DNA from: Naegleria gruberi
Lineage: Eukaryota
Direction: 5' to 3' (one strand)
NCBI GenBank assembly: GCA_000004985.1
Contig: GG738872.1
DNA length: 64,000 nt
The notes under the pieces were generated by a model. That model had not been told where the DNA came from, made no database searches, and saw only the letters and a list, made by a program, of their open reading frames with translations. A program made the position numbers and the translations under genes. This document shows, piece after piece, positions 1,267 to 41,351 of this stretch (positions are counted from its first letter, which is position 1; the number at the start of each line of letters is the position of its first letter).

Positions 1267-1807
1267 TTTCTCTTTCTCTTGTCTTTATTCTCTCTATATA
1301 ATAATAATTATAATAAATTGATTTAAATTGTCTCTTGTTATTTACAATAAAATTGATCGGAATGTGTAGTGAGTATCAAAATATCATAAAATCCACAATG
1401 TTCTTCTATTCCTACTTTGTTATTGCTCTGTGATCACAAAAGTTTTGCTTTTTTCGCTGTTGATCAAAAACAAATAACAATTCCTATTGTCTGTGTCTTG
1501 TTATTTTTTTCTATTTTTAAACTTGGAGATGGAATTTTCCTAAGTTCGTATGATTACTACTTGGTATTGTTGAATTTAAATTATTAAATAACGTTAACTT
1601 TGAAAAATTAGTAATAATGTATGTTTAACATTCCGATAATTTAGTGTTTCATCTTTCTATCAGGAATATAGAAATCTTGCAATGGTGGCTCCAATCTTTT
1701 TCCGTGTTGCCTGATGATAAGTTTTATTTTAGATTGGATCCACTTTTAATTATTTAAAAAAAAATAGCTTAACACCTCAATCAGTCAATCTCAACCGTTT
1801 CTTGAAA
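1267..1807. promoter_or_regulatory. Divergent intergenic region shared by the RCC1-like gene (minus) and the UvrD-like helicase gene (plus).
   Basis: A 540-bp AT-rich non-coding stretch lies between two divergently oriented start codons (1266 minus, 1808 plus). No ORF or RNA gene was recognised in it. Confidence 0.3.
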
Positions 1808-3778
1808 ATGGAGAGTAAAATACCTCTTCACTACCTTCCCGAGGAAGAGAATGATCAAAGCTTAAGGTATATGAAAACAAGCTCTTCCACTTCTCCACTC
1901 GTCAAGAGGGAACGTGCCACTCCACTCAATGCTGAACACTCTAAAAAGGTCAAATTTATTGTACCCAATCTTTCTAATCCCGATCAATCAAAGGAAACTA
2001 ATGTGAGTATTAAAGTAGATGATGATGATGAGAATGATGTAATTGTCAATGTTGATATGGTTGATGGAAACATGTTGGATAAATATCAACAACGAGTGGT
2101 TGATGCTGATGATTCTTCACTGATGGTTTGTGCTTCACCTGGAAGTGGAAAGACCTTCACCATGACAATGAAAGCAAAGAGAATTATCAATATGGATAAA
2201 AGTGCACGTCTCTTGATTTTGACCTTCTCAAAGGATGCATCTGTTGAGGCAGATAAACGTCTACAAAAGTATGAAGTTCCACACAATTACAATGTCATGA
2301 CTATTCATGCATTTGCATTGAGTGTCTGCAGAATGTTTGGAACCAAAACACAAATTGCAAAGAGGGACTTTCTTTTGGAAAAGTTAAAGGAAAAGAAGAA
2401 GGAAATGAAATGGAAATTTGGAGAATTCAAAGAGGAACATGAATTATTGAAATGGCTGGAAAAGGAATATGGAAAGGGAAATCGTTCTGATTCTGGCTAT
2501 GGATCATTCTATAAGGAAGCATTTGAGTATTATGAGAGTATTATTAAGGATTTCCTTGTACTACCTTCATTGGTTTATGAAGCAGAAAAGATATTGAAGG
2601 AAAATGAAAGAGCTAGAGAATTCTATCATACTCATTTCACTCATATTTTGGTGGATGAGTTCCAGGACACCTCAGATCATCAGTACAATCTAATTAATTT
2701 AGTGAAAGGGCCAAATACTAAGATAATTGTCTTTGGTGATAAGAACCAGGCAATTTATGGTTTTATTGGATCCAATCCAAAGATTTTCGACAAGTTTCAA
2801 CACGATTATCCAAGTGCTAGGGTTTTGGAGCTGTTGATAAATTATAGAAGTAGTAGTGAGATTGTGGATATTGCTAACAAATTCTTCAATACGAAAGCTA
2901 AGGCTTTCAATACAGAGAGCAAGGGTGGAGCAATTCGAAAGGAGAGATGTTCTGGTGAAGGAGATGAGCTAGATTTTATAGTGAAAGAAATTTCCAAACT
3001 CTTGGAAGAAGGAGTACAACATAAGGATATTGCTGTACTATTGAGAAGACAACGACTTCGATTTGAGCTCATGAAGAGAATGAACGAAAAGAGAATCAAA
3101 ATTGCAGGAGAGACACTATTCCATTACTTGGCAGTTGCTCAAATGTTGAAAATTATTTATTGTAAATATGAAGATAAGGCTGATATGAAAGATTGCTTGC
3201 CAATTATTGTAGAACATTTGAAACCATTCTTTGCTGGAATAGGTGACAAGTTTTGCGCACGTTTCATATCAGGAAAACTAGGAAAGAAAACTATTGCGGG
3301 AAAGACATTTGAAGTTTTCATGGATAACATGAAAGAATTGAGGGAATTCTACGAAACCCATAAGGTGGTAAAGGATTTACTTGAAAAGATTTGTCAATTA
3401 TTTGATTTGGATAAGGTGGATATTTCTCTCAATTTCACAGATATTTTAGATCAAGAATTATCTGATGAGAATATTACACAATTCATAGAAATGATGTCAT
3501 TTGAGGAGAATACTAGTTTGGAATCAGACGGTATCCAAGTCACAACCATCCACAAGGCCAAAGGCAGAGAATGGGAATATGTATTTATTCCAGAAATACA
3601 AGAAGGTGTTATTCCACTAAAAATTAAAGCAACAAAGAATAAGGAAAAACCATCAGAAATTGTAGATATGAGCGAGGAGGAAAGAATATTCTATGTTGCC
3701 TTAACAAGAGCCAAGAAGAGCATTTACTTGTCGTGCAATACAGGAGCATTCTCTCACTTTCTCAATAGACTTAAATAA
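1808..3778 (+). CDS. UvrD/Rep/PcrA-family superfamily-1 DNA helicase, single exon, about 656 aa.
   Basis: All SF1 helicase motifs are in order: I ASPGSGKT (Walker A), Ia ILTFS, II VDEFQDTS, III GDKNQAIYGF, IV NYRSS, V TTIHKAKGREWEYVFI, VI FYVALTRAKKS. The track start at 1802 is a TTG; the first ATG is at 1808. There is an N-terminal acidic low-complexity leader. Stop is TAA at 3776-3778. Confidence 0.8.
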   Translation: MESKIPLHYLPEEENDQSLRYMKTSSSTSPLVKRERATPLNAEHSKKVKFIVPNLSNPDQSKETNVSIKVDDDDENDVIVNVDMVDGNMLDKYQQRVVDADDSSLMVCASPGSGKTFTMTMKAKRIINMDKSARLLILTFSKDASVEADKRLQKYEVPHNYNVMTIHAFALSVCRMFGTKTQIAKRDFLLEKLKEKKKEMKWKFGEFKEEHELLKWLEKEYGKGNRSDSGYGSFYKEAFEYYESIIKDFLVLPSLVYEAEKILKENERAREFYHTHFTHILVDEFQDTSDHQYNLINLVKGPNTKIIVFGDKNQAIYGFIGSNPKIFDKFQHDYPSARVLELLINYRSSSEIVDIANKFFNTKAKAFNTESKGGAIRKERCSGEGDELDFIVKEISKLLEEGVQHKDIAVLLRRQRLRFELMKRMNEKRIKIAGETLFHYLAVAQMLKIIYCKYEDKADMKDCLPIIVEHLKPFFAGIGDKFCARFISGKLGKKTIAGKTFEVFMDNMKELREFYETHKVVKDLLEKICQLFDLDKVDISLNFTDILDQELSDENITQFIEMMSFEENTSLESDGIQVTTIHKAKGREWEYVFIPEIQEGVIPLKIKATKNKEKPSEIVDMSEEERIFYVALTRAKKSIYLSCNTGAFSHFLNRLK

Positions 3779-3799
3779 GGCTTTGTGTTTGAACTGTGT

Positions 3800-5748
3800 T
3801 TACAAATATCTTTTAAATCTGCTCTTCATCGCACAACATCTTAGAGTGGTTTGGGATGGTAGTCCATAAATTATACTCTTAAATTCTTGAATGTTTCCTT
3901 TGAAAAGCAGTTTCAAATGAGAGAGAATATATTTGGCTCCAGTTTTCGTAAACTTACTGGAACAAACAGTGAGACTATTCAAATACTTCATAGTGGGATT
4001 CAAAACTATCCATCCAAGTGTGAAATCTGTCAATTTGTTATTCCTTCCAATATTTAGACGAGTTAATTGTATGAAATTACATGAGCAAATGTGTGAAATT
4101 CCAATATCTGTTATGCTGTAATTACAAACTCCCAAATATTTGAGGTTGAGAGTCTTATTTTCCAAAGATGCAAGACTCTTATCGCTAATATTGTTACCAT
4201 TCAAATTTAAATGCTCCAGTTTAGCAAAGAAAGGGCATTGTACCAGAAATATCAATCCATTATCAATATTATTTTTAGCTAAATTGAGAGAAGTGAGATT
4301 ATTCAAATTTTCACAATTCTCAAATGCAACCATATCCCTATCATATAATCTGCAACTAGAGAGACACAACTCTCTCAAAGAATACATACTCGGATTTCTT
4401 GTAATACAGCGAATATCAAAATGAGTTAAATTTAAATACAAAGTGTTCAAATTTTCCATATATTCACTCTGGAGCATTTCTATTGCATTTTCACCAGAAC
4501 TGAAATGAATTTTCCTCAAGCTTTTCATTTTCTTGTTTGGAATTAATTTTTGGTTGAATGTGGATTTCAGATTTGTGAGATTAGTCAAGTATGGACTTTC
4601 GAATAGAGGATTTAAATCTTTCACTTGTCCTAAATCTAGATCTGTCAAACAAGAAAGGCCTTCACAGTTGGCTATAGATTCACTAATATCTTCTGAATTG
4701 ACGTTAAGTGAGAGAGTCCTCAATTTTTTCAATTTAAACAATTTACAATCAAATAAAACCTTTGAATCTATTGCAATATCAAAAATAAAACCTATGTTTA
4801 AAAGGGTTAGATTCATTAAACAAGAGCTATGGAAAATATGTTTCATCCCAGGATAACCAATTCCTGATCCACTTATGTTCAAACTCTCTAAATTGGAAAG
4901 ATGTGGACAATTTGCTATCAATGCAGCATCGTTAAAATCTAAAGCACAACTTTTCAAATTTAGAATTTTCAGATTTCTAATTGTGGGATTAAGAATGGAT
5001 TCAAGACGTTCTGGTGAAGCCAAGCATCCTTGGAGGTTAAGTTCAGTTAAATTTTTGCAATTAATAGAATAATAGTAGATTTCTATTGGTGATTCATAAA
5101 TAAATCTATTTCTGAAATTGACTTTTCTTAAATTGGGTAACGCTCCAATCACAGCAAGTATGTAGTAATCAGTTTCATCATAGCAATTGGATTGAAAAGC
5201 TCTAATATCCAATTCTAATAGATGTTTTAAATTTTGAGAACATGATCGAATAGATTCTGAGTTTACATGGGTTCCTCGCAGATTTAAAACTTTCAAATTT
5301 CTAACTATTTCACTCTCCAATAGGACATCAATACTTCTCTCGTCAATGCATAATTATTCCTCAAATTTAAATGTTCCAAATTAGTCAAAGTCTTACATTG
5401 GGAAAGTATTATCAATTGCTCATCTCTTAATGCATTGAATGCCAGACTTAGTTGAGTAATATTTCTAGGAACATTCGAAGCATTGAAGAAACTTTCAAAA
5501 TACCTTGGATGTATCTTTTTAATGGAAAAATCAAGTTTCATCCGAAATAAACAACTGGCATAAAACCAAGTCTTGGAAATTAAACAATAACTTGACAATA
5601 TTTCCAAATGATCATTACAATATTCCATAATTTCTATCATCATATCTTGTACTAATGCATCACCAAAGTAATTGTTCCAAATAAAATTGTCTTTTATCGG
5701 AGTATCGTTAGAAGAAGGTTGAATCTTGTGTTGCCTTGGTGAAATCAT
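3800..5748 (-). CDS. F-box / leucine-rich-repeat protein (FBXL-like). Two ORFs (5305..5748 F-box plus first LRRs; 3800..5320 LRR array) are joined by a frame discontinuity near 5300..5320.
   Basis: The N-terminal ORF has an F-box-like helix-loop (IEIMEYCNDHLEILSSYCLISKTWF) followed by LRRs (LTNLEHLNLRNNYALT). The downstream ORF is about 500 aa of LxxLxLxxN/C LRR repeats. A real ATG is at 5748. The frames overlap by about 50 nt with no acceptable intron. It is either an indel in the draft sequence or a pseudogene. Confidence 0.55.
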
Positions 5749-14499: not shown

Positions 14500-17400
14500 T
14501 TAAATAGACAACAATTCCTTCTCATTAAGATTCTTTTGAACATGATTCTTATTTCTACTTCTCTCCTTCAACAAGTAAATTACAGCAATAACAACAGCAA
14601 CCAAAGCAAATACTGGAATGGCCAATAAAATCAATGCAACCAAATTCATATCAGGTTTTGGAGCAATGATAATATTTGATTTGGATGATTCTTTAGGGAT
14701 TGGAGTTACTATTGTTGAAGTTTCTGTTTGAGAAACAAGTTTAACAATGAATGAGCCTGTTGTTCTTGTTTGGATTGTGATTGACTTATCAGATTCTGAT
14801 AGAATTGTGCATTGAGTTGATTGAATATAAGTTCCATTTTGTAATTCGAAACATTTAGCTACTAAACCATGTAAATTTCTGGCAGATGGCAATTTTCCAA
14901 TAGAAATGGATGCAATGGTGTAATTATTGTTGAAACTCATTTGTTGATCATTGTTGAAAATGGAGAATTCAACACTCTTACTGACAGCTGATTTCATTGT
15001 TGTGGATTGAGTCTTGTAATACAACTTGACACTTTCAACTTGATCAAATTCTGGCATGGAAGTGAAATCTTTGGTGAGGTTAAAGCTAGTTGTGGAATCA
15101 ACATTTTCATTCAATCCTTCCAAAGTTGTAATACTGACAAGTCTTGCGTAAACATTCATATTACTTGTGGTGGTCTTAACAGCTGGCATATCAGCAACCA
15201 AATTCTTAATTTGAACATTGACAAGATCACTGAAAATTTGTTCAATTCTTGACATGTCATCCAATGTGAATGTTCTTCTCATTGTTCCAGAAATGTGGCT
15301 TGAGAAGGCATTAGCAGAATTTTGAGAATTTGCAATATCTTGATCATTCATCTTGATTGAGCTAGAAGTTGATGCAGTGGATGTGGTTTCTGAGAATTTA
15401 GAGACAGAGAATGAAACTGTTGAATCTGCCAAATTATTGACACAACCACCAATGGATGAAAGGACAGAAACCTTTGAGGCAACTGAATCAGATGTTTCAG
15501 CAACAACTGAACCTTGTTCATCAGCTTGTTTAAAATACTTATCAACAAAGGCAGTACCAGCAGCTTTCAATGCTTCCTTTTCTTCTGGAGTTGCTGCAGA
15601 GACGGATCCTACAACTGACAGAGCAGATGAAATTGAAGAGACAGTTACTGAACCTTGTTGAGATACAGTAAGTGCAGCAAGGGCTTCTTGTGGTGATGGT
15701 ACGGTGGTAACAATTTGAGTTGTTGTTTCAGAAGATGCACCATTAGCATCATAAACGACAACTTTAATATCCAAAGTTCCTGCTGGAAGTGATGTAGCAA
15801 TTGACTTCTTTTCAGATTTGGAAGATAAAATGCTCCATGTGCTGTCAGTGGTCAACTTGTACAAGAATTCATATGAGAGTGGAACTTGTGGATCGTACCA
15901 ACCGTTACCACACTTAATTTGGAACTCATCTTTCAAAGCAACACCTGTGGTTGGATTGACTTCAAGAATACCAACAGTTGGTGGTGCATTGACTGTGAAA
16001 GTAATATCAGCACTTCCAGATCTATCACCATCAACAATATTCAATGAAACCTTGTTAACTGCTCCAGGAACCAAAAGTGTCTTTGGAATTTGAATATATT
16101 TGAGATTTGTTGTTACAGAGCTGAGATCCAAATCTGAGGAAGACCAAGCGTAGATTCTGGCAGATGAGAGGGAATCTTGATTGGATGCTTGTAATATAAA
16201 GTCAGAGGATGGGTCAACAACTGAGGTGTCGCAACCAGTTGGTGGTACAATAGAAGCTCTAATAATCTTTGATTTTGGTTGTTCAGTGACAGTAATCTTG
16301 ACAGTTGCAGAGGAAGTTCTTGTCAATCCCTTAGAGAATATGGTAGTGAATGAATAGACACCAGCTTCCATTGATCTACTGAATTTGAATTGATCAGCAT
16401 CATCAATAATGGGATCAAAGCAAGGAACAGCTGTAAGCAAATTGACACATGACAAGGAAATTGATCCTGAGGTTTCTGATGGATTACTTGGATCTTGCTT
16501 TTCAACATTGAATGTCACAGGAGTTTCAAAGGATTGAGACATATCTCTAACACTGAATGAAACAATTAATGGCAATGCCTTGGCAGTTACCTTAAACGGA
16601 ACATTGACAGTGGCAGCTCCGCTTTGAGAAACTGTCAAAACAAAGTAATAATCACCTTCAACTGAAATCTTTGTAAAATCATTGCTGAAAACCAACAATT
16701 CCTTATTCTTTTTAACAGTCACGGTTGTGTCCACAGATTTGGCTCTGTCTAAAGAATATTCATAGGACAATGGGCCAGACCCTCCATAACAAGATGGGAA
16801 GGAAACTGTTGGTGAAATAATTGAAGTCTTTCCAATAATCATTGTACTTTCCAAACCTTCCTTAATAGAAACTGTTGGAGATGTCAAATCAGAAATTTGG
16901 AATGAAACAGAAGCTGTTGAATGTTGTTGAGAGAAAGAGCTAGTGACAGTGACTTGAACAGTATAAGAACCAATTCCCAAAGTTTGTCCACTAACCTTAA
17001 TACCAGATCCTGATTGACCAGCAAGTAAAACTTCAAGAGCATCGGCATCGTCAGTTGTTGGAGCGAGAATGGTTGACCAAGTGAAAATTAAACTTCTTCT
17101 ATCCAAAGAAACTGATCCAGAAGCATCCAAGTAAATAGAACCACATGCCTTGGAAACACTGGCCTTGTCAGCTGTCAAAGAAGCAGTTGGAGAAAGAGGA
17201 AGATAATCCTTATTCTTAATACTAACTTGAGTAGTTTCTTGACTTCCAAAGTAATTCTTGAATTGTAAAGTTCCACCAATTGAAATACTTGCAGATGGAC
17301 CTAAAGTAATTTCCATAGAACTCTTTTCAGAATTCAAAAGACATTTGGCACCAACTCCAAGAATTTCATGATTGACAATAAGATCAGAACACATGAATTT

Positions 17401-20400
17401 CTTCTTTAAGGAAGAATAAACAACTCCGTAAATGGAATCACCCAAAGTTGAAAATCCGAAAGAAGTCGAATCTACACTAAAGTCACACTTCTCACCAAAC
17501 CAACCACTTTCACAGCTTTCACATTGAGCACCAGAAGTATGAGCTTGACAAGCACAACTTCCATCCATATTACAACTTCCTCTATTATTACAATTCTTTG
17601 AAGGGGAACATTCGAATTGACAATCTGTACCAACAAATCCAGATTTACACTTGTTACAGAATTCTCCTGCCCAATTACCAGTACAACCACATTTAAATGA
17701 GTTATCACATTTACCATGTCCACTACAAGTCAACTCGTCTGAACAGATTTTTTCAGAACAATCTGAACCAGTAAAGGAAGGAGTGCATTCTGAACAGAAT
17801 TTAGAAGCATCAAATGTGGAACTGGAACAGACACAGGCATTGTGTGAGATACATTTACCTCTACCACCACAGACAAGTGCTGAGGTTCTGTCAATATCAT
17901 TACATTTAAAGTTTTGACATGATGTACCATCAAAACCAGTATTACATTTACAGACAGGAGAGTTGTTTTCGAGTACACATTTACCTTTTCCACTGCAGAC
18001 AGATCCGTCAGTTGCCTTAACACCATTACAAATTGGAATGTCACAGTTTGGACCTGTCATTCCTGTTTTACAAGAGCCACAAGAAGAGCCAGCAAAGTTT
18101 CCAGAGCAAGTACATGTATGAGAATCAGAACAAGAACCACGGAATGAACAACCACCTTCAGATTCCAACTTGCCGTTACAAGTTGACAATTGGCATTCTG
18201 GACCAGTAAATCCATTATTACATTTGCAAGTATTGACACCAACACATTGACCTCTTCCTGAACAAACTAGAGAATGAGAACTATCCTTATCATAACAAAT
18301 TGGTAATTCACATTTTGATCCTGTATAACCCTTTGAACAATCACAATTATCTTGTGATGAACATTTACCCTTTCCTGAACAAACTGATGAGGCAGTATAA
18401 GAAACACCATGACATGTGGTGTCTGATGGAAGGAAGGAGCCAAAGAAACAATTTGTAGTTGTGAAGCTATCACAAAGACCAGTAAATGAATCTGGAATAC
18501 TGGTCAACTCAGTCTTGACAACTTGTTCACAAACGCTCTTACAAACTTGAGTAGAGGTGGCGATTGAGTCACGTTTGGAGCATGATTGGAATTTCATGTA
18601 ACAAACAAATTTGGTCAATGTAGCAATACATTTTTCATCACAAGTTTTTCCTTCCTGTGAATACAAGTTAATGTAATTGTCAAATTGTTCCTTTGCCAAA
18701 GCATCAATTCTAGAAGCAGCTCTAGCAATCAATAATCTAGCATGAGATGCATTTAGAGCTCCACTGTTATAAACAGAATTCAAAACAGTGTAATCAATAC
18801 TAGATTTACAGAATGACAATGCAGTTGATGGAAGAGTGATACAATCAACAGAAGGTGTGTAAATGTCACAATTTTCACCAGAGTATTCACTTGGACAAAC
18901 TTTCTTACAAACACTATTTGAGGAAATGAAATCAGCAGCACATGATGAACATGGGACTTCGCCAAGTTTGGAAATGTATCCCTTATTACATTTACAAACA
19001 GCTTCGGTTGAAACGGCAATGTTAACAAATTGACAAACACCATTACCACATGGTGAAGAACAAGTTGGTACGGCTTCAATACATCTACCTTGTTTGTTTT
19101 CAAAGCCAACTGCACAGCTACATAATTTACCATTTTGAGTAAAACCACTTTCAGAATTACAGACACATTGACCAGTTGTTGCATTAGTCTTGAAACCCTT
19201 CAATCCATCACAAGTACATCCACTTGATCCATCATAAGCATAACCACTTGAAACATCACAGACACACTTGGAACCAGATTGAATAGTCTTGGCAGGACAT
19301 GAACTACATGGTTTGTTTTGATCAATTGTGACAAATCCATTCTTACATTTACAAACAGAGACAGTTGAACTAGCTGTTTCAAATTCACAATTTCCATTCA
19401 AACCACATTCAACATTACATTTTGGTGTGGTATTTCTAACACATTTACCTTGTTCATTCATTGTAAAATCGAGTTCAGAATTACAAACACAAACTCCATC
19501 TGAGAGAATCAATCCAAGAGTGGAATCACAATCAGAACATGGATTTGTCGAATCAGAAGAAACCCATTGGGCTTCACAAATACACTGAGTGAAAGTTGTC
19601 TTGTCGTCACGATATGCACAAACTCCGTGAGATCCACAATTGAATTCACAAACTGCTGGTTTTCTAATACATTGATTACCAGAAGATTGATAATTAGCAG
19701 CAACATTACAGGTACATTCACCATTAGAGAGAACATGACCTGAAGAAGTATTACAAATACATAATGAGTTGACTAAATCAAATCCAGTCTTACAAACTGA
19801 ACATCTGTCACCTTCAAAGTTGTCCTTACAGGTACATGATGCAATACCAGTTGAGTTTTCACAAATTCCATGAACACCACATTGGAGAGTACATGGATTT
19901 GGTGATTTTTCTTGACAAAGATCTCCGAAATAGCCTTCTAAACATTGACATTTGGCAATTCCAGTAACATTGACACAAGATCCACTATTCTTACAATTTA
20001 GAGTACATAGATTTGGTTTTTGAACAATATTTTGACATAATTCACCATTGAAACCAGATGGACAAACACACTTATCATTTTCACAAACACCACCATTCAA
20101 ACAATCAAGTTTACAACCTTGATTAACTGGAACACTACACAAAGGACCAGTATATCCTGAATTACAAATACACTTCTCTTCACCGGTCTTTGTATTGTTA
20201 TAGCAAGTACCATTCACACAACCCAATGAGCAAATAATCTCATTAACACATTGATTTCTGTACAAATCACAGAACTTTGCAGAGCCAGTTGTACAATGAG
20301 CATCACTTTCACAATCTAGTTTACAAATAGCATTTCTACAAGTAGTATAAGGAGTATGTGAAGAACATTCATCATTGGTTGTACAAGAGATGTCAATACA

Positions 20401-23400
20401 TCTTTCCTTATCTAATTGACAAACCTTATTAGCTGCTTGACATGGACGAGTTGAATTACATTCACTTTGACAAGTATTTACAAAGTCACTTGTGTAATCA
20501 GAGACACAGATACCCTTACTACATTGATAATCACCACTACATTCAGTTTGGACACAAACTTTGGACCAACATTGTTTGAATCCCTTCAAGTAACAATCAG
20601 AGTTGACTAAACATGGTTGATTGGTACATCTACCACCTCCATTGCTAACATCACAATATGGCTTATTAGAAGGACACTCAGAATCATACATGCATTCACG
20701 AGTACAGAGTCCCGATTTACATGTTGGTAAAACTGCATAACTGCAACCAGCATTTGATGTACATTTGATTGGGAATTGCACACAAGTCTTTTTAGTTCCA
20801 CTGTAAATGTTAAAATCACAAACATCAGTCAAAACACCATTTTTAACAACACCAATACAATCACGATCAGTATCACATTCAGGAACACATTTAGAATTCT
20901 TACAAGCAGTGTATCCATTTTCAGTACATTCACTTCTTAATTTACAAGATTTTGGTTCACAAGCATTGGATGTAACATTACACACTGGTTTACCAGCAAC
21001 TGAGCTACAATCAGAATCTTTCAAACATTGTGGAACACATCTTTGATAAGTAGCTTGGCCGCTCACTAAATTACATTTAGTTTTACCAAATTTAGAAGCA
21101 CATTGAGAATCACCTAAACATTCAAAGGTACAAACTCCTTGAGAACCACAGAATGAATAACCATTTTCAGAACAATCACCATCAATAGAACATGGTTTAG
21201 GAACACATTTTCCAATATCAACATCACATTTCTTTTTAGAAACAACTCCAACACAATCAGCATCTTTCACACACTCAGGAACACACAATCCCAAAGTAGC
21301 ATCTTGCTTAGTTGAACAGATAGGTCTATTAGTATATTTGGCAGCACAATAAGAATTATATGAACACTCAACGTCACAATATTTTCTGCCTCCCATATTA
21401 GATCCACAAAAAGGGTATCCTTTAATTGTACAATTGGCACTATCAGTACAAAAACGGACAGTACATGTGGCAATTGATGCATCACATGAAGAGGTAATTC
21501 CCTCACAATCGGCATCTTTCTTACAACCTTCAACACATCTATTAAGGGTCATGTCATCCTTCTTGGAACAAGTGTTCAATAATGGATTTGCACTCGATAA
21601 TTGACAGTCATTGTTGGAGCTACATTCATCTTTACAATACTTGTAATATGGATCACACTTGCTATATCCCTTATATGGACAATCAGTGTCATTGGAACAA
21701 ATCTTCTTCTCGCAAACTCCAGTAGGACCACAAACTTTTCTAAAATCTTTAGTACAATCACTGTCAGAGGTACATTCTGGTCTACAATAACAATCTCCAT
21801 TCGTACAGAGACATTCAGTATTTGTGGCATAACGACCGCACGGAGAAATTGCGGGATAACAAGGGACTTTAGAACATTTACCTCCGGAACCATTAGTTAT
21901 ACAAGATGGTCTTCCATAATAACCATTACAATCTGCATCATTGCTACATTCAGCATTACATTTTCTATATTTGGAAGTTTCATTCTTATTGGAACCACAA
22001 ACTGGGAAGTATTGATTCTTACAATCAGAGTTGGAAACACATTCATAACCACAAGTTCCATTTGAAGAACAAATTTGGAAACCCTTAGAAACACAATCAC
22101 TAGTTGTGGTACAATTGACTGCTTGACACAAACCACTTGTCAAATCACAAACTGGTTTGAGTTCATCCAAGCAATCAGAACCACTCTTACATCTCAAAAT
22201 ACAATTCATTCCATCCCATGCATAATCAGGAGCACAAACTGAACAAGTCAATCTGTCACTAGCACAAACTTCACAATTGTTTTTACCACTTTCACATGAT
22301 TCAACACATTTGTGATATTCCTTAGTATTTGAAGAGGACATTCCACAACGACTGTAACCAAAGAGCTTACAATCATCATGAACCATACAATCAACATCAC
22401 AAGTTCCATTTGAATTACAATTTGGATAACCATATGGAGCACAATCAGAAGCAGTATAACAGCTGACACCAACACATCTGAAAACACTAGTGTCACATCT
22501 TGGTTTACCACGAGATAAAATACATCCATCATTATCTAAACATTCCTTATTGTAACAACGTTGATAAGTTTGAGGATCTTTAGAGTTAGTTCCACAACTA
22601 GTTTTACCAAATTTGGTACAATCGCTGTCTACTGAACATTCAATAGAACATCTCTTATACTTGGTTGGATCACTCTTATCATTATTACAGTAAGGGAGAT
22701 TGGCTGGACAATCAGCGTTAGTCAAACATTCGAATGCACAATTTCCATCAAGTCCACATTTAAAGAAACCTTGAGCTTGACAAGATTCATTCGAAGTACA
22801 ACTAGTTCCAATACAATATCCATTAACCAAATCACAATTTGGCATGGTTTCAGTACAATTCAAATTACTGGTACATTTTTTCTTTTCGCATCTAGCTCCA
22901 AAATAGGAATCTGTGCAATTACAAACTTCTCCATTTAAGGTATACAAACATTCGCCACCATTGACACAGGTCAAGGTTGAACATTTCTTCAAATTTTCAC
23001 AGTTAGTTCCTTCATATAACTTGGTACAGTTACAAGCATCTTGTGAAATACATGATCCTCTTCCAGAACAAACATTTCCATTATTGGAAGGTGTTCCATG
23101 ACATTTTGGAATACATTTTTCATAACTGATACAAGAACCTCCATTACAAACAGCTGGATCAGTAGAATTTAATCCACCACAAGTTGGAATTTGGCATTCT
23201 TCTCCAACATATCCAGTTGTACAATTACACAAATTAGGAGAAACACATTTACCATTCAAGGAACAAGCTGAGTTGCCAGTCTTTCCAAAACAGATTGGAA
23301 TAGAACAGTTACTACCAATGTAACCTTCATTACACGTACAAACGTTTCTCTTGTTACAAGCACCATTACCTGAACAAACATTTGAACTAGTACTGTTAAT

Positions 23401-26400
23401 ACCAAAACAAGTAATAAAAGTATTTACACATTTACGGTATTGAGAAGTAACATTACGAACAGAACCACAAGTAGTTTCATAATGCTCGAGAGTTGGACAA
23501 TCTTGATCGACCAAGCATTCATAAGAACAGAAACCATTCAAACAAACTGAAAGTCCATTCGAATAACATTGAGTTTCATTCGAACAAGGAACAGCAGTAC
23601 AACTTTCTTGAACACAAAGTGGTTTTGTAACGTTATAACAATGAGAATTAGTGAGACACTCCTTTCCACATTGTTTGTAAGTGAATCCATTTGAAAATTC
23701 ATGGCAATAGGTCTTATCTTGATATAACAAGGCACAATCATCGTTAGTTTCACATTCGAAACCACAAGTACCATCATCAGAACAATTAGAATAACCAGTA
23801 ATATTCAGAGAGACACAATCAGAACTAGAAGAGCAAACATTTGGAACACAGGTGTTGTTTTGACAAGAAGTTTGATACATTTCATAAATTAATGGATTCA
23901 AACAATCACTATCTAATGCACATTGCTTAATTTCACATCGGTCTCCAGTAAATAAAGAACCACATTTACAATATTCAGTACCGTTTTTGATTCTACAAAT
24001 ACCTCCATTGTCACATGTCTTTGTGCATGGAAGAACTGTTTGACATTGCGTTCCAGTGAAGGATTCACCACATTGACACTTGTCTAAACCGATACATGCA
24101 CCATTTCCGTTACAAGCAGTATCAATTGATTTACCAAAACAGGTAAAAACTTCACAATCAGTTCCAGAGGATCCTGTAAAGCAGCTACATTTTGGATCTT
24201 CAAATTTAGAACTACTTGTCAAACCAGTTCTACAGTAACCATTTCCACTACAAACGCTACTGTCATTTGCTAGCTTTCCAGTACAATTAACTTGACATGC
24301 ACTTAAGGAATTTCCAGCTGTTTTGAAAGAATATCCAGAACAACTAATTGGATAGAGTTCATAAATATTACTTCCCATAGAGTAGAAAACAGATGATGTC
24401 TCTCCAAGAGCAAGAGCTGAAGGTGTGCCTGCTAATGATGAAGCAATTGAGTAAGGAATTGTTGACATTCCAATAGTATATAACATAATGTTCGTACCAG
24501 CGACAATGTAAAGAATACCATTTTTGGTTACTTTCATATATTCAACAGATGATGAAGTGGTGAAACTGTAATCAACTGAATTGTAACCCTTATAGGCAGA
24601 GACAGTTGTTGTGTAGGACACAAATGGTTTTCCATAAATGGCCATTCTACCACCAGGTTTTCCACTAAGAACTCCACCAACAGGACCGTCATTGAAAAGT
24701 GAATCAACATTACCATATTGCACGTCACCTTCTCCTGAAAGACGTCCGGCAACATAAACGACAGTATCATCTTCATTCAATGTTATAGAGCTGGTTCTCC
24801 AAAAACTGAATTTTCCACCTACTCTGCTCTTGGTAACCAAATCATATCTGAAAACGAAACAGGAAGTTGTAGAAAAGTCCTTCCTGACAGAATAATACAT
24901 GTATCTTCCATTCTTACTGATGGCCATATTGTAAAATGTGTAACTGGTTGTTAGAATTAAGGTTTTGGTTCCACTAGCAGTCATTGAAACAATTTCGGTA
25001 TCGAACATTATATAATAAACACCATTGACATATGCCATGTCAACAATGGTGGCACCAGCACTCAATACTTGTTTGGAGGCATAATTGTAGTAACCAGTAT
25101 GAACTGGCCAGTATGTTGGTAAAACTTGACATGTGTTAGGACCTATACATTTCAATCCATCACAAACTGAACCAATATTTGAAGAATTACTCAAGACTCC
25201 ACTGCAGGAGGTAACATCACAATTAGATCCAATCCAACCTTCCTTACATTCACAATTGTTCATTCCGACACATTTACCATTTCCAGAACAAGTATTCGAA
25301 ACTGTTTTAGGAATATTAGAACAACTATAAATATCACAAGCATCACCAAAATATCCACTCTTGCATGAACAATAAGGTTTCATAACATTAGTAATACATG
25401 TACCATTTCCACTACAGACATTGACATCTGATGCTAAAATACCATTACATTGTGGTTGGGAACAATTACTGCCTGTCCATCCTTGAGAACAGGAACAATT
25501 ATTATCAATACAAACACCATGACCAGAACAAACCAAAGTATTTGTACTAAGTAATCCATCACAGGTGTATGTACAAACTTCAGATGAATTAATGTATAAA
25601 CATTTGGCAGTTTCTGAACAGTTAGTATTGACACAAGGTTGTGAAAATTCACAATTACTTCCAGAACGACCAGTGTTACATTTACAATTATTCATTGAGG
25701 TACAAACACCTTCTCCAGAACAAACACCTTGACTAGAAGCTCCAACACCATTACAAGTGTGCTCACAAACATTTGGTCCAATACACTTGACATTAGTACC
25801 GTATTTGGCACATCCCAATGTTGATGTAGCAGAAATTCCAGAACATGTGAAATTGAGACATAATGAACCTTCATAACCATCGAAACAAGAACACTTGTCA
25901 GTTCTGACACAAGTACCATTTCCACTGCAAACACTTGGATTTGATGAGTTTTTACCATAGCAATACTTGAATTCACATTCAGAACCTGTATAACCAGAGA
26001 AACATGAGCAAGCAGAATATAAAGGAGTTGAACTAGTTGACTGTCCAAGTTCTGCATTGAAAACTGTTACAGTTGAGCCAACATTAATTGCACATGATCC
26101 TCCTCCATTACAAACATTAGAATCGGATGATATTAAACCATTACATGTAACATCACATGTTGTTTGATCCACTACAGCATTTTGTGAACATCCAGTGACT
26201 GTAAGCTTTCTTACTACATTACTAGAATCAGTAAAGTAAATATTTCCATATTCATCAAAAGTCATTTCATAAGAGTAAAGTTGAGCAGAAAGAGCTGGAC
26301 CGTTATCACCAGTATTTCCATTGGTACCTATACCTGCAATTGTCAATTCAGTGTTAGGAATATATTTTCTAATTGTATTACCGTAATAGGTAAATACTTC

Positions 26401-29353
26401 TCCTTTTGAATTGAACTTGAAGTAACTATTTTTAAATATGTAGGAAGTAACTGTGGTTGCTGTGGATGGTGTCTTGGTTACATCCCAAGATTTAAGTGTA
26501 TTCGCATTTAGATGATATATTTTACCATTATAGTAATCAATTGTGCCAGAAGTTATAGTTTTATCACATGTCTGAGTTAATGAAGGAGGGACAGTACAAA
26601 AACCTAAATTTGAAGACAGGAAGTAGTATGTGTCAGTTTCAGGGTTGTAGGCCAATGAATACATGGAATAGTAGCTTGTCATTGTTGTCAATTTTGTAGC
26701 TGTTCTACTGGCAAATGAATATCTATAAATATTGTTTGCAAAATCAGTTCCTTTACACATGAAAGCAAGATCTCCATTCTTATCAACAATTAAATTAAGC
26801 ACAGGTTCACAAGAAAGGGTAACAAGTGTGTATATTAAACCATTACTAATGGTTCTAATTCTCTTGTTGTTGCCTTCTGAAACATAAACTGAACCATTCT
26901 TGTAAACGATGCCTTGAACACCATAACCAACAGCAGAAATGGCTGGTTGACCATCTCTTGTATAAGATAAAGTACCTGTTCCCGCAATGTTTGTAACTTC
27001 TTTGGTCAATTGATTGTAGGATTTTACATAATTTCCATTGATGAAAAGGTATTCACCACTCTTATAGGATGGGGTAATAAAAGAACTTCCAGTTGGAATT
27101 GAGAAAATTGTTCTAATGATATTATCCTGGAGGGAAATTGATCGAACATTACCATTAGAATCTGAGAACATGAGACTGCTACCATCTGTTGAAGCATATA
27201 ACGTTGTAATATTTGAACAAGATGCATTAAGGGCTGGACCTTCATCTCCTAGAACTGTAGCTGTTGGATCACAGGCTAATCTTCTTACATAATTACTACC
27301 CCCAGTAGATTCCATTTTGAAAATAACTCCAAAGTTGACAAAGTAAACAGTGTTCATTATTGAGGTAATTAAGGAAGTTGCGCAAATATTAGCATTCAAA
27401 GCTAATTTATCCTGTACAGAACTAATACCACTTCCACAAGTACCAGATCCAACATAAGTTGATACACCATTGGTAGAATCATCAATTTTGAGGATCTTGT
27501 TGCCTTCAGTTACAACAAAAATCAGAGACGAATTTCTATTGGAAGCGATCATTTTGATTGTTGTACCAGAAAGCATGGTTGCATATACTTCACCTGTGGA
27601 AAAACAAGTAGCACAAGCATATTTAACGATGGACTTTGCAGGGTACGCCTTGTAAATGGTGTCTATGGTGGCCACATATGCAAGATTCTTTGAGACTGTT
27701 AAAAATTTACAACTGGAACAGGAGATTGTTTTCAATACGCCTGCTACGATTGGTTTTACATAGTTATCAGAATCGAGAATATAGGTTGCTTCAGGAGTTG
27801 CATAAGCAGCAATAACACCAGTCATTTTCACTGTCAATGGATCGCCAGTGGTTGGTTCACTGGTATATGAGAATGCAACCTTGTCAATTTTGTAATTAAA
27901 CAAGGAACCACCACACTTTCTAAAATCTATACATGTTTCACATTTTGTTCCATTGAAACCTTCATTACAAACACAAGTATTTTCACCCATACATGTTCCT
28001 TTACCAGAACAAACTTTAGCACTGGTTTCAACAATACCAAAACAAGTATTATGTTTTTGTGAACAATTGGATCCATAATGTGGAGAGGTACATTCACAAT
28101 TATCTGTTGCAATACACTTTCCATTACCAGAACAAACATTAGAGTTATTAGAAAGAATGCCATCACATCTATGAACACAAATTTCTACACCTTTAGAATA
28201 AGAACATTCATTACATGCGGAACATGGTCGAGAGAATTCACACTCATCACCAAATCTACCATTGGAACATGAACAATTATTTTCAGCAACACAAACACCT
28301 TCTCCAGAACAAACATTTGGACTAGATGCTCCTACAGCATAACATGTATGTTCACAAACATCTGGACCAATGCACTTAACTTCTGAACCGAATTCACTAC
28401 AAACATCTGGCAATGCTCCAGAAACATTGAAGCATATATAATCTGTACATTGTGGACCAGACCAACCTTCATTACAGGAACAATTATTTGAGGAAATACA
28501 TGTTCCATTTCCTCCACATACAGTTGGATCACTATCTGCCTTATTAAAACAGTGAATAGTTGTACAATCAGAACCATAAAATCCTGAATCACAATTACAT
28601 GTGGTACTAGTATTTGAAGTAATAGCACAAATACCATTACCACCACAAACAGTAGGATCTGATTCAGACAATCCATTACAGGTAATTTCACATGTTGTAC
28701 TATTGACATATGAGTTATCCATACATCCAATAACAGAGAGCTTTCTAACAACATGATTAAATCCTTCACACATGAAAATGTCACCAAATTCATTAAATGC
28801 CAATGATCTAACACCATCAACAAGAGCTTTTGTGGAAGGTCCACCATCACCTGAATAGCCATATGCATCTCCACCAACAAGTGTAAATTTTCCACCATTA
28901 GCATACTTTACAACATCACTAGAAGAATACAGAAACATTTCTCCTCTAGAGTTGAATTGAATACCAGAATAGGAGGATGAAACAATCATAATCTCTTGAG
29001 TTGAGAATGNNNNNNNNNNNNNNNNNNNNNNNNNNNNNNNNNNNNNNNNNNNNNNNNNNNNNNNNNNNNNNNNNNNNNNNNNNNNNNNNNNNNNNNNNNN
29101 NNNNNNNNNNNNNAAGAGTTCCATTTGATCCAATTGACAGAATAGATGGACCATCAGTTACATAGAGAGTCCCATTCTTGTAAACCACACCACCACCCCA
29201 TGCTGTTTTAGTTGTTGCAATGGTTGAAATATTGAACTTGAACATGGTACCACCACATTCGTAATTGTTTTCACACGCTTCTTGTGCTCTTACCTTGCAA
29301 TAGCAAAGTAAGGTTACCAAAGCAAAAAGGAGAAATTGTAGAATCCTTTTCAT
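14500..29353 (-). CDS. Giant (about 4,950 aa) single-exon type-I membrane protein. Order of regions: signal peptide, NHL beta-propeller repeats, tenascin-type EGF arrays (several clusters), a long run of about 40-aa Cys-rich modules, a REJ-like module, a Ser/Thr-rich stalk, one TM helix, and a short cytoplasmic tail.
   Basis: One uninterrupted frame runs from the ATG at 29353 to the stop at 14500; it is broken only by the 104-N gap at 29010..29113, and the frame jump across the gap is an artefact of its arbitrary length. The signal peptide is MKRILQFLLFALVTLLCYCKVRA. NHL-type repeats are visible (YGYSGDGGPSTKAL...FGDIFMCEGFNHVVRKL; GDNGPALSAQL...GNIYFTDSSNVVRKL). Dozens of 6-Cys EGF units are present (e.g. 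CSGNGKCIATDNCECTSPHYGSNCSQ). Cys-rich modules of the form CxxDxDCxxxxxxxCxxxxxxC repeat many times. The C-terminus is IIAPKPDMNLVALILLAIPVFALVAVVIAVIYLLKERSRNKNHV... (TM plus tail). Confidence 0.8.
29010..29113. other. Assembly gap of 104 N inside the 5' part of the giant gene.
   Basis: A run of N. The reading frame differs before and after the gap, so the real gap size is not 104. Confidence 0.95.
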
Positions 29354-30367: not shown

Positions 30368-32436
30368 TTACTTTATACTGTTAAAAACAAACTCGATTTC
30401 AGCCATAGTTTTTGAAAGATATTCTTCTTCATATACAACTGTTTGTTTCAGCCTTCCAAAAGCCTCCAGTAAATTAAGTGTTACAATTTGAAAATGGCTT
30501 TGATTATTGGACCCATTTCCAAAGTTAGACAGTGGTGCAAAATGTTGAGGGTACTTTTCACATAGCTCCACATCATCGGATTTGGGATTTTTAGACATGA
30601 GGAGATATAATTCTAATAAATCAGCTCTAAACTCTCTTGTCAGGAACTTTTTCATTATATCAATACAGACCGTTCCATCACTGAAAGTTTTTGAGAGAAA
30701 CAAATCCATTTCTTCTTGTTGCGCCCCAAAATCTCCTACTACTGGTTGCTCTGTTTTGATAAAGGAGTAAACAATGAGAAAAACATTTTGTAGACTAAAC
30801 CCTGTTACCATTAATATTTTGGTGAAGCCATATAAAATATATCCAATGGTGTGGTTTATGTACATTCTGGATACTGGTCTAGTATAATCCAAAGCTGGTA
30901 TTGTGAAATATGAAATGTCTAATTGGGAAACAGCGTAATGAAGAAATGAAAAAAACATAGTTGGAATCAATACCAAGAATTCGACGTGGTACCCAAAAGA
31001 ATCATCATAGAGAAAGAACCATCTTAGAATTCTCCTCTTTTTCTTGAGCTTGCTCAAAAACTTTCTATTAAGGATAAAGTGAGCTATCAGCCCACTTCCT
31101 AACACTGAAAAATACACAACTGCCACAGAGATACAAATAGTGTCATAAATATAATTAACCAAAAATATGTTGGGGATAGAAGTCAATAGAAAACTGACAA
31201 TCACACCTTCACAAAGAATGACTGAAATAATAGAAATTAGAAATATGAATTTGGACATTAATACCTTTAAAATGATACTGTCCCTTTTAGAATAGTATTT
31301 AGCATAACAGTATCTACATGAATAATATCTCAAAGCTTGTAAAATAAGTAAAGATATCACTACAATAATTACAAGTTCTTCAATTAATGTATCCCACTCA
31401 GGGTCATAGTAAATTATATTCAAAATAATACTGGCCACACCCTGAGTAAGATACAATCCAGCACTAATAAATGGAATAATAAATCTACTCTTGATCATTT
31501 GATGATCTCTTTTAGCGAATAAGAGAATTAAAATAATAGAGAATTCGGCAACTCCAATGCATAATGCAGTCAATTTCCAACAATAGTATTGTGTTCTGGA
31601 ATTAAATGTAAAGGCATCACAGTCATCATGCCAATATGTGGAACCATGTTTAGTTGACAAAAGTGGAATATAATAGAACCTGTTACGTATTCAGGTAAAA
31701 AATTTTCTGGTTCAGGTGGAGAATACATGTCCACAAATACGAGATGTAATTGAACATCTGTTGTATCGGCTGGTACTACAATTGGAATTCTCATTTCCAA
31801 ACTTGTTAGGCTTGTTTCGTATTGTCTGTACTGTTGCCTGAGGGGTGTAAATTTCCATTCTGCTTTGGAAAGAAATAAATCTAATTGTTGATTTACAAAT
31901 CCATAAGAACATCCACCATTGAATTTAGCTTCGTTTCTTTTCAAGCAGAAGGCTTTTGGAAGTATTTCAAAATCCAAATCTCCAAACCTTTGATAATAAC
32001 AAAACATTCTGTACCTTACATCTTCAATCATTGAAATGGTTTTTCCATCTATAAAGGGATTCATATGAAAACTCTCATTAATTGATGGTATAAAATATTT
32101 ATCCTTATTAGAGAATAATTGAAGTGCCAAGCAAAAGTTTGGGCTCATTTTCGATGCCCTTAAATTGAGGGAAATATTTCGTATCGATGTATCCTGAATA
32201 AAATCATCAATACTCCACAGGAATCTTATCGGATCCGAATGATGCCTCACAAAACATTGTTCCTTTCCGTATACAGCATCTTGATAGGTAGCATTATTAA
32301 TATTATCTGTCATACTGCTTTCTAATTGAGTAATATTAGCTAATAAAAATCCGCAATCATTGAGGTAGGGATAAAGTACTAGTAGTACGTTCAATAAAAT
32401 CAGCCAACAAGTTTTAGGGTGCCTGTGAGATTTCAT
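30368..32436 (-). CDS. Receptor-like protein: signal peptide, a Cys-containing extracellular domain of about 290 aa, seven TM helices, and a cytoplasmic tail of about 130 aa. Two ORFs (31570..32436 and 30368..31660) are joined by an unresolved frame discontinuity.
   Basis: ATG at 32436 gives MKSHRHPKTCWLILLNVLLVLYPYL (signal peptide). The downstream ORF has 7 hydrophobic helices (LTALCIGVAEFSIILILLFA ... IGYILYGFTKILMVTGFSLQNVFLIVYSFI). The two frames overlap across 31570..31660. No GT..AG intron was found that restores the frame. Confidence 0.5.
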
Positions 32437-33402: not shown

Positions 33403-33861
33403 ATGCAATTATTTGTCAAGACACTCACTGGAAGAACTATCACTTTGGAAGTAGAATCTAATGATTCAATTGAAAATGTGAAAAGAAAAGTACAAGATAA
33501 GGAAGGAATTTCACCAGATCAACAAAGACTCATCTTTGCTGGAAAACAATTGGAAGATGGCAGAACTATTAATGATTACAACATTCAAAAGGATTCAACT
33601 CTTCATTTGGTGTTGAGATTAAGAGGAGGAATGCAACTTTTTGTAAAAACCTTAACTGGAAAGACCATTACAATTGAAATGGAATCGAATGATACTGTTG
33701 AGAATATGAAACAAAAGATATTTGATAAGGAAGGTATTCCTTCAGATCAACAACGATTGATTTATGCCGGTAAGCAATTGGAAGATGGAAGAACTATTGG
33801 CGATTACAATCTTCAAAAGGATTCAACTGTGCATTTAGTATTGAGATTGAGAGGTGGTTAA
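33403..33861 (+). CDS. Tandem di-ubiquitin (two head-to-tail 76-aa ubiquitin-type repeats ending in GG), strongly divergent from canonical ubiquitin.
   Basis: [18 protein letters not shown]...LRLRGG is followed directly by [18 protein letters not shown]...LRLRGG and a stop. Against canonical ubiquitin, repeat 1 differs at about 11 of 76 positions (including K11R) and repeat 2 at about 15 of 76. The Lys at positions 6, 27, 29, 33, 48 and 63 is kept in both repeats, K11 in repeat 2 only. GG is kept in both. Confidence 0.85.
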
Positions 33862-39598: not shown

Positions 39599-41351
39599 AT
39601 GCAAAAGCTCATTTCGACTTTTTTTCGATCATCTCCCGAATCAAGTGCCAGCTTTGACACTTCAGAAAAACCAAAACCAAGACTTCATAACCAAGGTGAT
39701 TCCAAGGCGATTGTATTCCTAGGAACAGGTGGTTCAGGAAAGTGTACGTAAAAAGTTTACAACAATTATTTATTCAACAATTTTTAATTTGTTTTGTAAA
39801 TGTTAAATAGCTGCAATTTTTGTACAAATGTTTATAGAGAAGGATGATTTGGAAAAGAGAAGAACCATTCTACATGAAACAATTTTGGAATATTTTGACA
39901 TGGTTTCAATTAATACTTCTTTTGGGAATGCTCAAGCTTGCACGAAAATGGATGAATTTTTCGAGGAATATTCTAGATCGGGACCAAAGACGCTATCGGC
40001 AAGCAAGTTTTGGACTCAGGATTTTGCAGATAATTTGTTCGAGTTGTTTTACGATTCTGGATTTCAAGATTTGATTCACCAAAACCGTTCGAAACTCTAT
40101 TTACACGAGAATATTGCCTATTTCATGAGGAAGAAGAATTTTGAGAGGATTAAACACTTGTCCAAACTCAACATTGAAGATTTATTGCGAATAATGATTA
40201 AAACCTCTGGCATCTCATCATTTTCTCCAATTAAAGGAATAACCCTGTGTGATACTGGTGGACAAAGAACTGAAAGAAAAAAATGGAATAAGATTATAAG
40301 TAATCATGGCAGCAATATTGTAGAATGTCTGGTTGTTTCATTGGCAGAGTTTGATGAGGTTTGCTATGAGGACGATGTCACTAACAGGTATGAGGAAAGC
40401 TTGACTTGTTTTAGGGAGGAATTTGTGAATACAAAAGACTTGACCATTCTCTTTACAAAATATGAAGTGTTGAAAAGGAAGGTTTCTGATGGTGTTCGAT
40501 TTTCGGATTATGTTTCAGAGTTTAGTGGAAATGATTCGAATGTAGAGGAAGTTAGAGATTTTATTATTGGAAAGTATGTGGAATTGGATACGGAGAAGAA
40601 GATTAGAAAGTTTATTGTGGTTAATTCTGCATTTGATCATTTGGAATTGCAACAGGTTTTTAATGAAATTACCGAAACTAATTCATTCGATTCATATTTT
40701 GATGAATATTTGAAGAAACTTGATTTGGAAAAGCAAACTGGTGGTGATGTTGGAGAAGGAATACATGAAAATATTGAGAAGTGGACAGCCAGACCATTAT
40801 TGGAAGATGAAATTCTACAAATTTCCAACTTTTTGGAACTTGATGACTTGCTTAATATGAACCAAGTTTGTAAAATGTGGAATCATGTGACTTATAGAGC
40901 ATCTCTGATATTGAGAAGACCAAATCTCGATTTGTTTATCAATTCAGGTTATGAATTTGTTAAGAGCTTGACTCTTCAATCGAGATTTGTACAGAAAAGA
41001 CACATTGAGGCTCTTACTCAACCAAAATTTGCACAATTGGAATATTTAGATTTGCGAAATAATTATCTATTGAGACAAGAAGATTTTGATAAGTTATTTG
41101 GAAAAACTGATTTTAAACATCTAAAAACGCTCTTGTTGGATTATGTTGCATTACAGGATTTGAAATTTCTTCAAAATTCTGCGTATTTGAGACTGCATGT
41201 TCTTTCTTTGAATGGAGTGAAAGGAATTAGCACAGAACAGGTTATTCAGCTCATCAAGTCTCCAAGCTGTCAAGAACTGAAGGAGGTCAACACTAAAAAT
41301 TGCCCAAACACTAATACAGAGATTCTCAAAAAAGAGTTGAAAGTTCCGTGA
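39599..41351 (+). CDS. Fusion protein: heterotrimeric G-alpha-like GTPase domain (Ras-like plus helical domain) followed by an F-box and leucine-rich repeats. Exons: 39599..39743 and 39811..41351.
   Basis: Exon 1 ends in the P-loop (KAIVFLGTGGSGK|S). The intron at 39744..39810 (67 nt, GTACGT...AAATAG) is phase 1. Exon 2 has the G-alpha helical-domain signature (YLSKLNIEDLLRIMIKTSGI), which aligns with the switch-I region of Gi-class G-alpha subunits. Switch II is DTGGQRTERKKW. Then come a canonical F-box (PLLEDEILQISNFLELDDLLNMNQVCKMWNHV) and LRRs (LEYLDLRNNYLL...LRLHVLSLNGVKGI). The NKxD and TCAT guanine-specificity motifs are not recognisable. Stop is TGA at 41349-41351. Confidence 0.7.

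Follow-up and report, generated by a model that had tools for sequence, protein, structure and literature searches.

Among single-pass proteins that carry a REJ domain, ligand binding has been proven for the receptor SpREJ1 of sea urchin sperm: it combines EGF and lectin domains with REJ, GPS and one transmembrane (TM) helix, and its binding of egg-jelly polysaccharide leads to the sperm acrosome reaction (PMC1934368). REJ and GAIN domains are already known outside animals, in Tetrahymena and Dictyostelium (PMC3321182) and in Ectocarpus (PMC4700764). Here we analyse a 64,000-nt stretch of Naegleria gruberi contig GG738872.1 (assembly GCA_000004985.1), hereafter the window, 23% of which is occupied by one gene on the minus strand at 14500-29353. 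We conclude that this region is probably a single intron-free gene for a type I membrane glycoprotein that serves as a receptor for adhesion or recognition on a non-cleaving GAIN base; we refer to it as the giant. The giant resembles a REJ/GPS single-pass receptor in its working and is a member of the REJ-domain superfamily with GAIN and Frizzled (Fz)-type cysteine-rich domain (CRD) folds, and SpREJ1 may be its closest functional precedent. What is new is a corrected gene model, the presence of NHL blocks, an Fz-type CRD, REJ and GAIN in one protein, a family in three Naegleria species whose GPS is predicted to be cleavage-dead, and a super-repeat of 12 cysteines that is apparently an orphan; a literature search on Naegleria together with REJ, GAIN, polycystin or EGF-like adhesion proteins returned nothing relevant.

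From 29007 down to 14503 the minus strand reads through 4,835 codons with no stop, and the stop codon follows at 14500-14502. At the base composition of the window 7.3% of codons should be stops, which gives a run of this length a chance of ~1e-160, and the other two minus-strand frames over the same open reading frame (ORF) hold 153 and 634 stops. Residues are numbered below from the first codon after a 104-N assembly gap, at 29007. The segment upstream of the gap is read in a different frame; its ATG at 29353 starts a predicted signal peptide (MKRILQFLLFALVTLLCYCKVRAQ), after which 56 more residues lead up to the gap. Since the frame differs on the two sides and three does not divide 104, the gap length can only be an estimate. 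An earlier reading of this DNA by a model that saw the sequence only (the sequence-only reading) had placed both ends of the gene correctly and had recognized one giant uninterrupted coding region; its figure of 4,950 amino acids (aa) is nominal, since it presumes the arbitrary gap length. The protein comprises no fewer than 4,915 residues; with the stretch hidden by the gap, the total probably exceeds 5,000.

The module that had been called REJ-like is a genuine REJ domain: PF02010 scores 133.2 bits against a cut-off of 25 (E = 1.3e-38, aa 4210-4451), and the domain is kept in all members of the Naegleria family described below. Between REJ and the membrane, where an O-glycosylation-type Ser/Thr stalk had been proposed, lie a folded domain and a linker of 28 Ser/Thr/Pro-rich residues. 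The predicted structure of aa 4440-4760 (predicted local distance difference test (pLDDT) 85.4, predicted template-modelling score (pTM) 0.78) consists of seven helices and then a beta-sandwich, the last five strands of the model being the GPS region; helical A and beta-sandwich B subdomains directly before the first TM helix identify a GAIN domain, which, like the Fz-type CRD, was absent from the sequence-only reading. The single C-terminal TM helix, the short tail and the predicted N-terminal signal peptide support the type I topology that had been suggested, with a tail of 22 residues by sequence, not 18.

Comparison with described receptors places the giant near several families and inside none of three that were considered. 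SpREJ1, a single-pass protein of the PKD1/REJ family, has 1,450 aa, C-type lectin domains and a canonical GPS, whereas the giant is ~3.4 times longer, has no lectin domain, lacks HL|T in its GPS, and adds NHL blocks, an Fz-type CRD and a novel four-cysteine array. Polycystin-1 (PKD1) and PKD1-like proteins likewise have a very large mosaic ectodomain with REJ and then GAIN near the membrane, and the giant follows the PKD1-type order of REJ, GAIN, 28-aa linker and first TM helix. However, polycystin-1 has 11 TM helices, a PLAT domain, a channel-like C-terminus and a cleaved GPS, while the giant has one TM helix, a 22-aa tail and no cleavage triad; Pfam PLAT and PKD_channel found no match in it, and membership of the polycystin-1 family is ruled out by the single TM helix (aa 4789-4813) and the missing PLAT domain. 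The GAIN domains of adhesion G-protein-coupled receptors (GPCRs; BAI3 4DLO, CELSR1 8VY2, GPR110 8HC0, CD97 and GPR126) share ~10% sequence identity with that of the giant, in which only one GPS disulfide out of two remains and the HL|T site is missing. Adhesion GPCR membership is ruled out, as GAIN is followed not by a seven-TM region but by a single TM helix before the stop codon is reached.

The Fz-type CRD was settled by a family profile of ten Naegleria sequences together with structure prediction, single- and two-sequence PDB searches with the region having given nothing useful. All 38 of the 38 PDB matches of the profile are Fz-type CRDs (FZD1/2/4/6/7/8/10, ROR2, MuSK and sFRP3), and an AlphaFold (AF2) model of the region (pLDDT 87.6) shows a mainly helical CRD fold. 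Fz is also the top Pfam family both for aa 3371-3530 of the giant and for six of the ten family members (best E = 1.4e-5), and UniRef names one N. lovaniensis protein of the family 'FZ domain-containing protein'. The family alignment has 11 invariant cysteine columns, ten of which fit the CRD pattern (C19-C150), with C10 in the preceding EGF-like stretch. Unlike the CRDs of MuSK, ROR2, Frizzled, sFRP and Smoothened, this one sits inside a giant single-pass discoban protein that has neither a seven-TM region nor a kinase domain, and its Pfam Fz score stays below the cut-off.

Much of the remaining ectodomain is cysteine-rich. Scanned whole, the protein matches five Pfam families (REJ, 133 bits; EGF_TEN, 112.7; EGF_Teneurin, 91; EGF_2, 67; and EGF), to which a scan in pieces adds DUF5874 and a sub-threshold NHL match. 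Counting CxCxxGxxGxxC motifs gives 32 in six blocks, where the sequence-only reading had seen four, and the furin-like or GCC2_GCC3 modules it had considered were found in none of the Pfam scans. Its tandem Cys-rich array is real, with the modules smaller than the ~40 aa it had given them: ~35 units of 23-33 aa with four cysteines each (C-x5-C-x6-8-C-x3-13-C), ~1,050 residues in all, are grouped into a super-repeat of ~82 aa with 12 invariant cysteines in eight copies. This super-repeat is regular at the protein level although the underlying DNA repeats are only 60-83% identical. The array at aa 2045-2920 had no match among 5.8 billion proteins in a word-indexed homology search, no Pfam family above threshold and no relative among the ~180 proteins fetched, and its profile yielded weak leads only, to the eggshell-membrane protein CREMP (PDB 9pgb, E = 0.017) and to Pfam Dumpy_DPY (E = 0.04). 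The 82-aa, 12-cysteine super-repeat is thus apparently an orphan, as far as such searches can tell.

NHL propeller repeats had been reported in three blocks; two of these stand, with four blades between them, and the third, at aa 1296-1555, is without NHL signal. All 24 homologs of aa 371-955 are annotated as NHL proteins (PF01436, PF25021; best E = 2e-40), those with names being bacterial and the rest unnamed metagenome proteins, and the likeness is confined to individual blades. A hidden Markov model (HMM) built from bacterial blades only finds four blades in the giant (E = 6e-18 to 4e-5), with three canonical blades spread over the 585 aa of block 2; against PDB, block 2 matches the SOQ1 NHL domain (E = 0.018). 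Block 1 is cut by the assembly gap, which probably hides several of its blades; a DNA repeat joins its start (29151-29185) to block 2 (26873-26907) at 74% identity. The domain at aa 1296-1555 has no Pfam match, no blade by the bacterial-blade HMM, no informative PDB match and no homolog among the proteins fetched, and only its size and its position between EGF arrays suggest a YWTD- or NHL-type propeller. Teneurins likewise unite EGF_TEN/EGF_Teneurin modules with NHL-type propeller repeats, but their orientation is type II and they carry a YD shell and a toxin-like C-terminus, whereas the giant is type I and its NHL blades are closest to those of bacterial NHL-repeat proteins. Pfam YD, RHS and Tox domains have no match in the giant, and teneurin membership, raised by EGF_TEN together with NHL, is ruled out by the type I orientation and the absence of a YD shell.

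Table 1 Features of the giant, from the N-terminus to the C-terminus, and of a paralog in the same window.
Feature	Residues (aa)	Position	Strand	Remarks
Start codon (29353) and predicted signal peptide MKRILQFLLFALVTLLCYCKVRAQ		29282-29353	-	Hydrophobic core, then small-residue site; read directly from the sequence
Start of first propeller-like block, 56 aa up to the gap		29114-29281	-	GGGVVYKNGTLYVTDG resembles block-2 blades
Assembly gap, 104 N		29010-29113		No strand
NHL-type block 1, end	1-95	28723-29007	-	Canonical blade aa 42-91, E = 6e-12 (bacterial-blade HMM)
EGF block A	96-370	27898-28722	-	EGF_2 2e-20, EGF_Teneurin 9e-20; five motifs
NHL-type block 2	371-955	26143-27897	-	Blades aa 581-629, 669-723, 889-939
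EGF block B	956-1295	25123-26142	-	EGF_Teneurin 2e-23, EGF_2 7e-22; six motifs
Cys-poor 260-aa domain	1296-1555	24343-25122	-	Between EGF arrays
EGF block C	1556-1695	23923-24342	-	Three motifs; Pfam EGF families
Four-cysteine array 1	1696-1866	23410-23922	-	Two 82-aa super-repeats
EGF block D	1867-2044	22876-23409	-	Four motifs; Pfam EGF_TEN, EGF_Teneurin
Four-cysteine array 2	2045-2925	20233-22875	-	~30 units C-x5-C-x6-8-C-x3-13-C
EGF block E and EGF-like CxC repeats	2926-3370	18898-20232	-	EGF_TEN 120 bits; DUF5874 33 bits, cut-off 27
Frizzled-type CRD	3371-3530	18418-18897	-	Ten-cysteine pattern, family profile, predicted fold
EGF block F, including laminin-type EGF	3531-3850	17458-18417	-	Six motifs; EGF_laminin 8e-4
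REJ module	3851-4439	15691-17457	-	PF02010
GAIN domain, degenerate GPS	4440-4760	14728-15690	-	GPS aa 4718-4757; TTG 4749-4751 replaces HL|T
Linker, 28 aa, Ser/Thr/Pro-rich		14644-14727	-	pLDDT ~50
TM helix LVALILLAIPVFALVAVVIAVIYLL	4789-4813	14569-14643	-	Read from the sequence; TM segments align in paralogs
Cytoplasmic tail, 22 aa, basic KERSRNKNHVQKNLNEKELLSI, and stop codon		14500-14568	-	
Small paralog, 634 aa		42087-43991	+	Signal anchor, C-terminal part of REJ, GAIN-like region, TM, 45-aa tail

An exhaustive profile search with the REJ-to-TM region returned 1,531 proteins at E<=1e-3 and 23 at E<=1e-30. All of the latter that were looked up by name are Naegleria proteins, except the unnamed metagenome protein P0046, and every full-profile member with an organism name is from Naegleria. 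In N. gruberi they comprise XP_002683274, XP_002670540, XP_002677046, XP_002672407, XP_002678784, XP_002680115 and XP_002680062, and further members occur in N. lovaniensis and N. fowleri. The last third of the giant (EGF and CxC repeats, Fz-type CRD, EGF, REJ, GAIN and TM) is a cassette common to this family. In XP_002678784 (P0044), NHL (27.4 bits, above the cut-off), EGF arrays, REJ, a GAIN-like region and TM precede a cytoplasmic kinase (Pkinase E = 8e-43); P0037 joins Peptidase_S8 to EGF and REJ, and a member from N. lovaniensis has an N-terminal subtilase. XP_002680062 (P0043), encoded outside the window, has the EGF, REJ, GAIN-like and TM build; its annotators call it 'basal body protein NBP family'. 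The small paralog at 42087-43991 in the window contains REJ (Pfam 85 bits, E = 6e-24), is 29% identical to the giant and has a degenerate GPS like the giant's; the public database holds only a 224-aa fragment of it, P0041, with two residues different.

Beyond Naegleria, the C-terminal third of the giant is related to REJ-GPS proteins of other protists. The Mantamonas plastica transcript EP00003_P018528 (P0090), like related protist and metagenome REJ-GPS proteins, also has EGF, REJ, GAIN and one TM helix, and covers the Naegleria REJ-to-TM profile from one end to the other, but it is only 1,256 aa long and its GPS is canonical (CDCNHLTEF). The N-terminal two thirds, by contrast with this multigene family, have no relatives among the proteins fetched apart from the NHL blades. 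The earlier description of the protein as lineage-specific therefore holds for the N-terminal two thirds, with the exception of the bacterial-like blades, and fails for the C-terminal third.

Judged from its sequence, the giant is most likely an adhesion or recognition receptor, and the role in cell-cell or cell-prey recognition put forward by the sequence-only reading is plausible. The protein would project from the amoeba surface as a long disulfide-stiffened rod, with the NHL propellers and the Fz-type CRD as possible heads that bind a ligand (a glycan, lipid or protein) presented by substrate, prey or another cell, and with the EGF and four-cysteine arrays as spacers. Closer to the membrane, the REJ module may form an extensible beta-sandwich stack and GAIN a rigid base; were GAIN unable to cut itself, the ectodomain would remain covalently tethered. 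With a tail of only 22 aa, any signal would have to pass through lateral partners, for example a kinase-bearing paralog or a channel. The existence of a kinase-bearing paralog argues that the ectodomain cassette is used for transmembrane signalling in N. gruberi.

Several points weigh against this reading and call for caution. The function is inferred from architecture alone, and the GAIN and CRD folds are AlphaFold predictions from shallow alignments (21 and 10 sequences). Two of the proposed ligand-binding modules score below their Pfam thresholds, NHL with 13.2 bits against a cut-off of 20 when the giant was scanned in pieces, and Fz (PF01392) with 19-20 bits against 32.1. The gap at 29010-29113 interrupts the protein sequence and leaves it incomplete, and the N-terminal two thirds are held up by ORF statistics and repeat grammar, with homologs to the NHL blades only. 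Finally, the name given to P0043 hints at a flagellar or basal-body context and not at amoeboid adhesion.

That name bears on the alternative that survives best, according to which the protein is real but is a structural, flagellar or basal-body-associated component, or part of a cyst wall or matrix, and not an adhesion or recognition receptor. We consider this unlikely. Animal REJ/PKD1 proteins are indeed ciliary or flagellar (PMC1934368), and the four-cysteine repeat is weakly like a structural eggshell-membrane protein; however, the match to CREMP is weak (E = 0.017), and the name of P0043 is annotation only, a literature search on Naegleria NBP and the basal body having found nothing relevant. 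The predicted signal peptide, the TM helix and the huge ectodomain fit a plasma-membrane protein, and, as the plasma membrane includes that of the flagellum, the two interpretations overlap.

The receptor interpretation includes a GAIN domain that does not cleave itself. HMM and MAFFT alignments of the GPS place the giant's SITIQTRTTGSFIV opposite FTECDCNHLTEFAA, and the cleavage triad His-Leu|Thr is Thr-Thr-Gly in the giant and Ser-Thr-Gly in the family consensus. Of the GPS cysteines the first pair is kept (C4719, C4733) and the second lost, and Pfam GPS has no match in the giant, whether scanned whole or in pieces. At the aligned place the Mantamonas protein carries a canonical GPS (CDCNHLTEFAAL) that passes the Pfam GPS threshold (33.9 bits), its HLT standing opposite the giant's TTG; P0046 reads CSCNHLTTF, and the more distant REJ-to-TM matches keep a canonical GPS. 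In latrophilin-1, H836S, L837A and T838G each impair autoproteolysis, and the T838G protein still folds (PMC3321182). By analogy with these mutants, the Thr-Thr-Gly triad leads us to predict that the GAIN domain of the giant folds and does not self-cleave. Retention of the fold without the autoproteolytic triad across the aligned Naegleria members would make the family a natural test of GAIN without cleavage.

It is improbable that GAIN is still processed, at a non-canonical site or by another protease, with the ectodomain shed or held non-covalently as in polycystin-1. The family does have subtilase-bearing paralogs, but at the site itself Gly stands in for the P1' nucleophile (Thr/Ser/Cys) and Thr for the general base His, the second GPS disulfide has gone, and equivalent single substitutions impair cleavage of latrophilin (PMC3321182).

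REJ, GAIN and an Fz-type CRD in one protein of a discoban amoeboflagellate, with kinase and protease paralogs, argue that these modules were available far outside animals and their relatives, so that 'metazoan receptor' modules were being recombined there too. We can extend this to a scheme that is quite unlikely to hold in full, in which the Naegleria REJ-GAIN-TM proteins would be a lineage-specific receptor system built, independently of animals, from ancient polycystin, adhesion-GPCR and Frizzled-MuSK-ROR parts. The cleavage-dead GAIN would then be a fixed mechanical base, the short-tailed giants would be ligand-capturing or force-bearing co-receptors for kinase paralogs or for a TRPP-type channel, and the super-repeat would be a new disulfide-rod fold.

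The two remaining alternatives concern the gene and not its function. A highly repetitive domain composition, a scaffold gap near the 5' end and a change of frame across it might point to an assembly artefact in which smaller tandem genes were collapsed or chimerically joined into a single frame. We regard this as very improbable. No DNA repeat within the ORF is longer than 81 nt, and with 60-83% identity these repeats differ too much to have misled an assembler, nor does the sequence itself hint at a collapsed tandem array; the interior of the ORF holds no signal peptide, TM segment or stop, and the domain order of the C-terminal 1,700 aa recurs at independent loci (P0002 and P0027).

The C-terminal 985 aa of the giant are 100% identical to a 1,706-aa 'predicted protein, partial [Naegleria gruberi]' at NCBI (P0001), and a second N. 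gruberi protein matches at 50%. Mapped on the ORF, P0001 omits three in-frame stretches of 1,818, 2,757 and 1,167 nt, at 23350-25167, 20116-22872 and 18898-20064, and stops 70 aa before the real stop codon, with the loss of the TM helix that is its membrane anchor. That this public model is right, with a multi-exon gene, an mRNA without the three long segments, a product of ~1,700 aa and an open frame across the 'introns' that is merely incidental, is scarcely credible, for although all three junctions have GT...AG boundaries, each omitted stretch is a multiple of three, none of their 5,742 nt in total holds an in-frame stop where other frames over the ORF hold 153 and 634, they encode well-formed EGF motifs, the 12-Cys super-repeat and the 260-aa domain, and the early end without TM helix is the mark of an automated partial model. 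We therefore take the continuous ORF as the gene, the three-'intron' model being almost certainly an annotation artefact. Because the gene's public entry is a partial model from which two thirds of the protein and the membrane anchor are missing, the REJ-GAIN-TM family will be missed or mis-assigned in proteomic and comparative work on Naegleria, that on the pathogen N. fowleri included.

Other features of the window were noted in passing. Immediately 5' of the giant and in its orientation, at 30368-32436 (minus strand), two ORFs rich in hydrophobic segments overlap; the difference between their frames implies an intron or a frameshift, and neither has a Pfam match. Two 505-N gaps lie at 51304-51808 and 53711-54215, the first inside a minus-strand ORF (50420-53656) and the second just past its 5' end, and the gene model there is likewise incomplete. 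On the plus strand, 1802-3778 is an intron-free ORF for a UvrD/REP-type helicase (PF00580 1e-41; UvrD_C 3e-34), and the ORF at 33403-33861 encodes two tandem ubiquitin-like units that have diverged from canonical ubiquitin and end in RGG. A further plus-strand ORF, at 39828-41351, encodes an unusual fusion: a G-protein alpha-subunit domain (PF00503, E = 2e-42, profile positions 59-333), behind which come an F-box-like motif and a tail rich in leucine.

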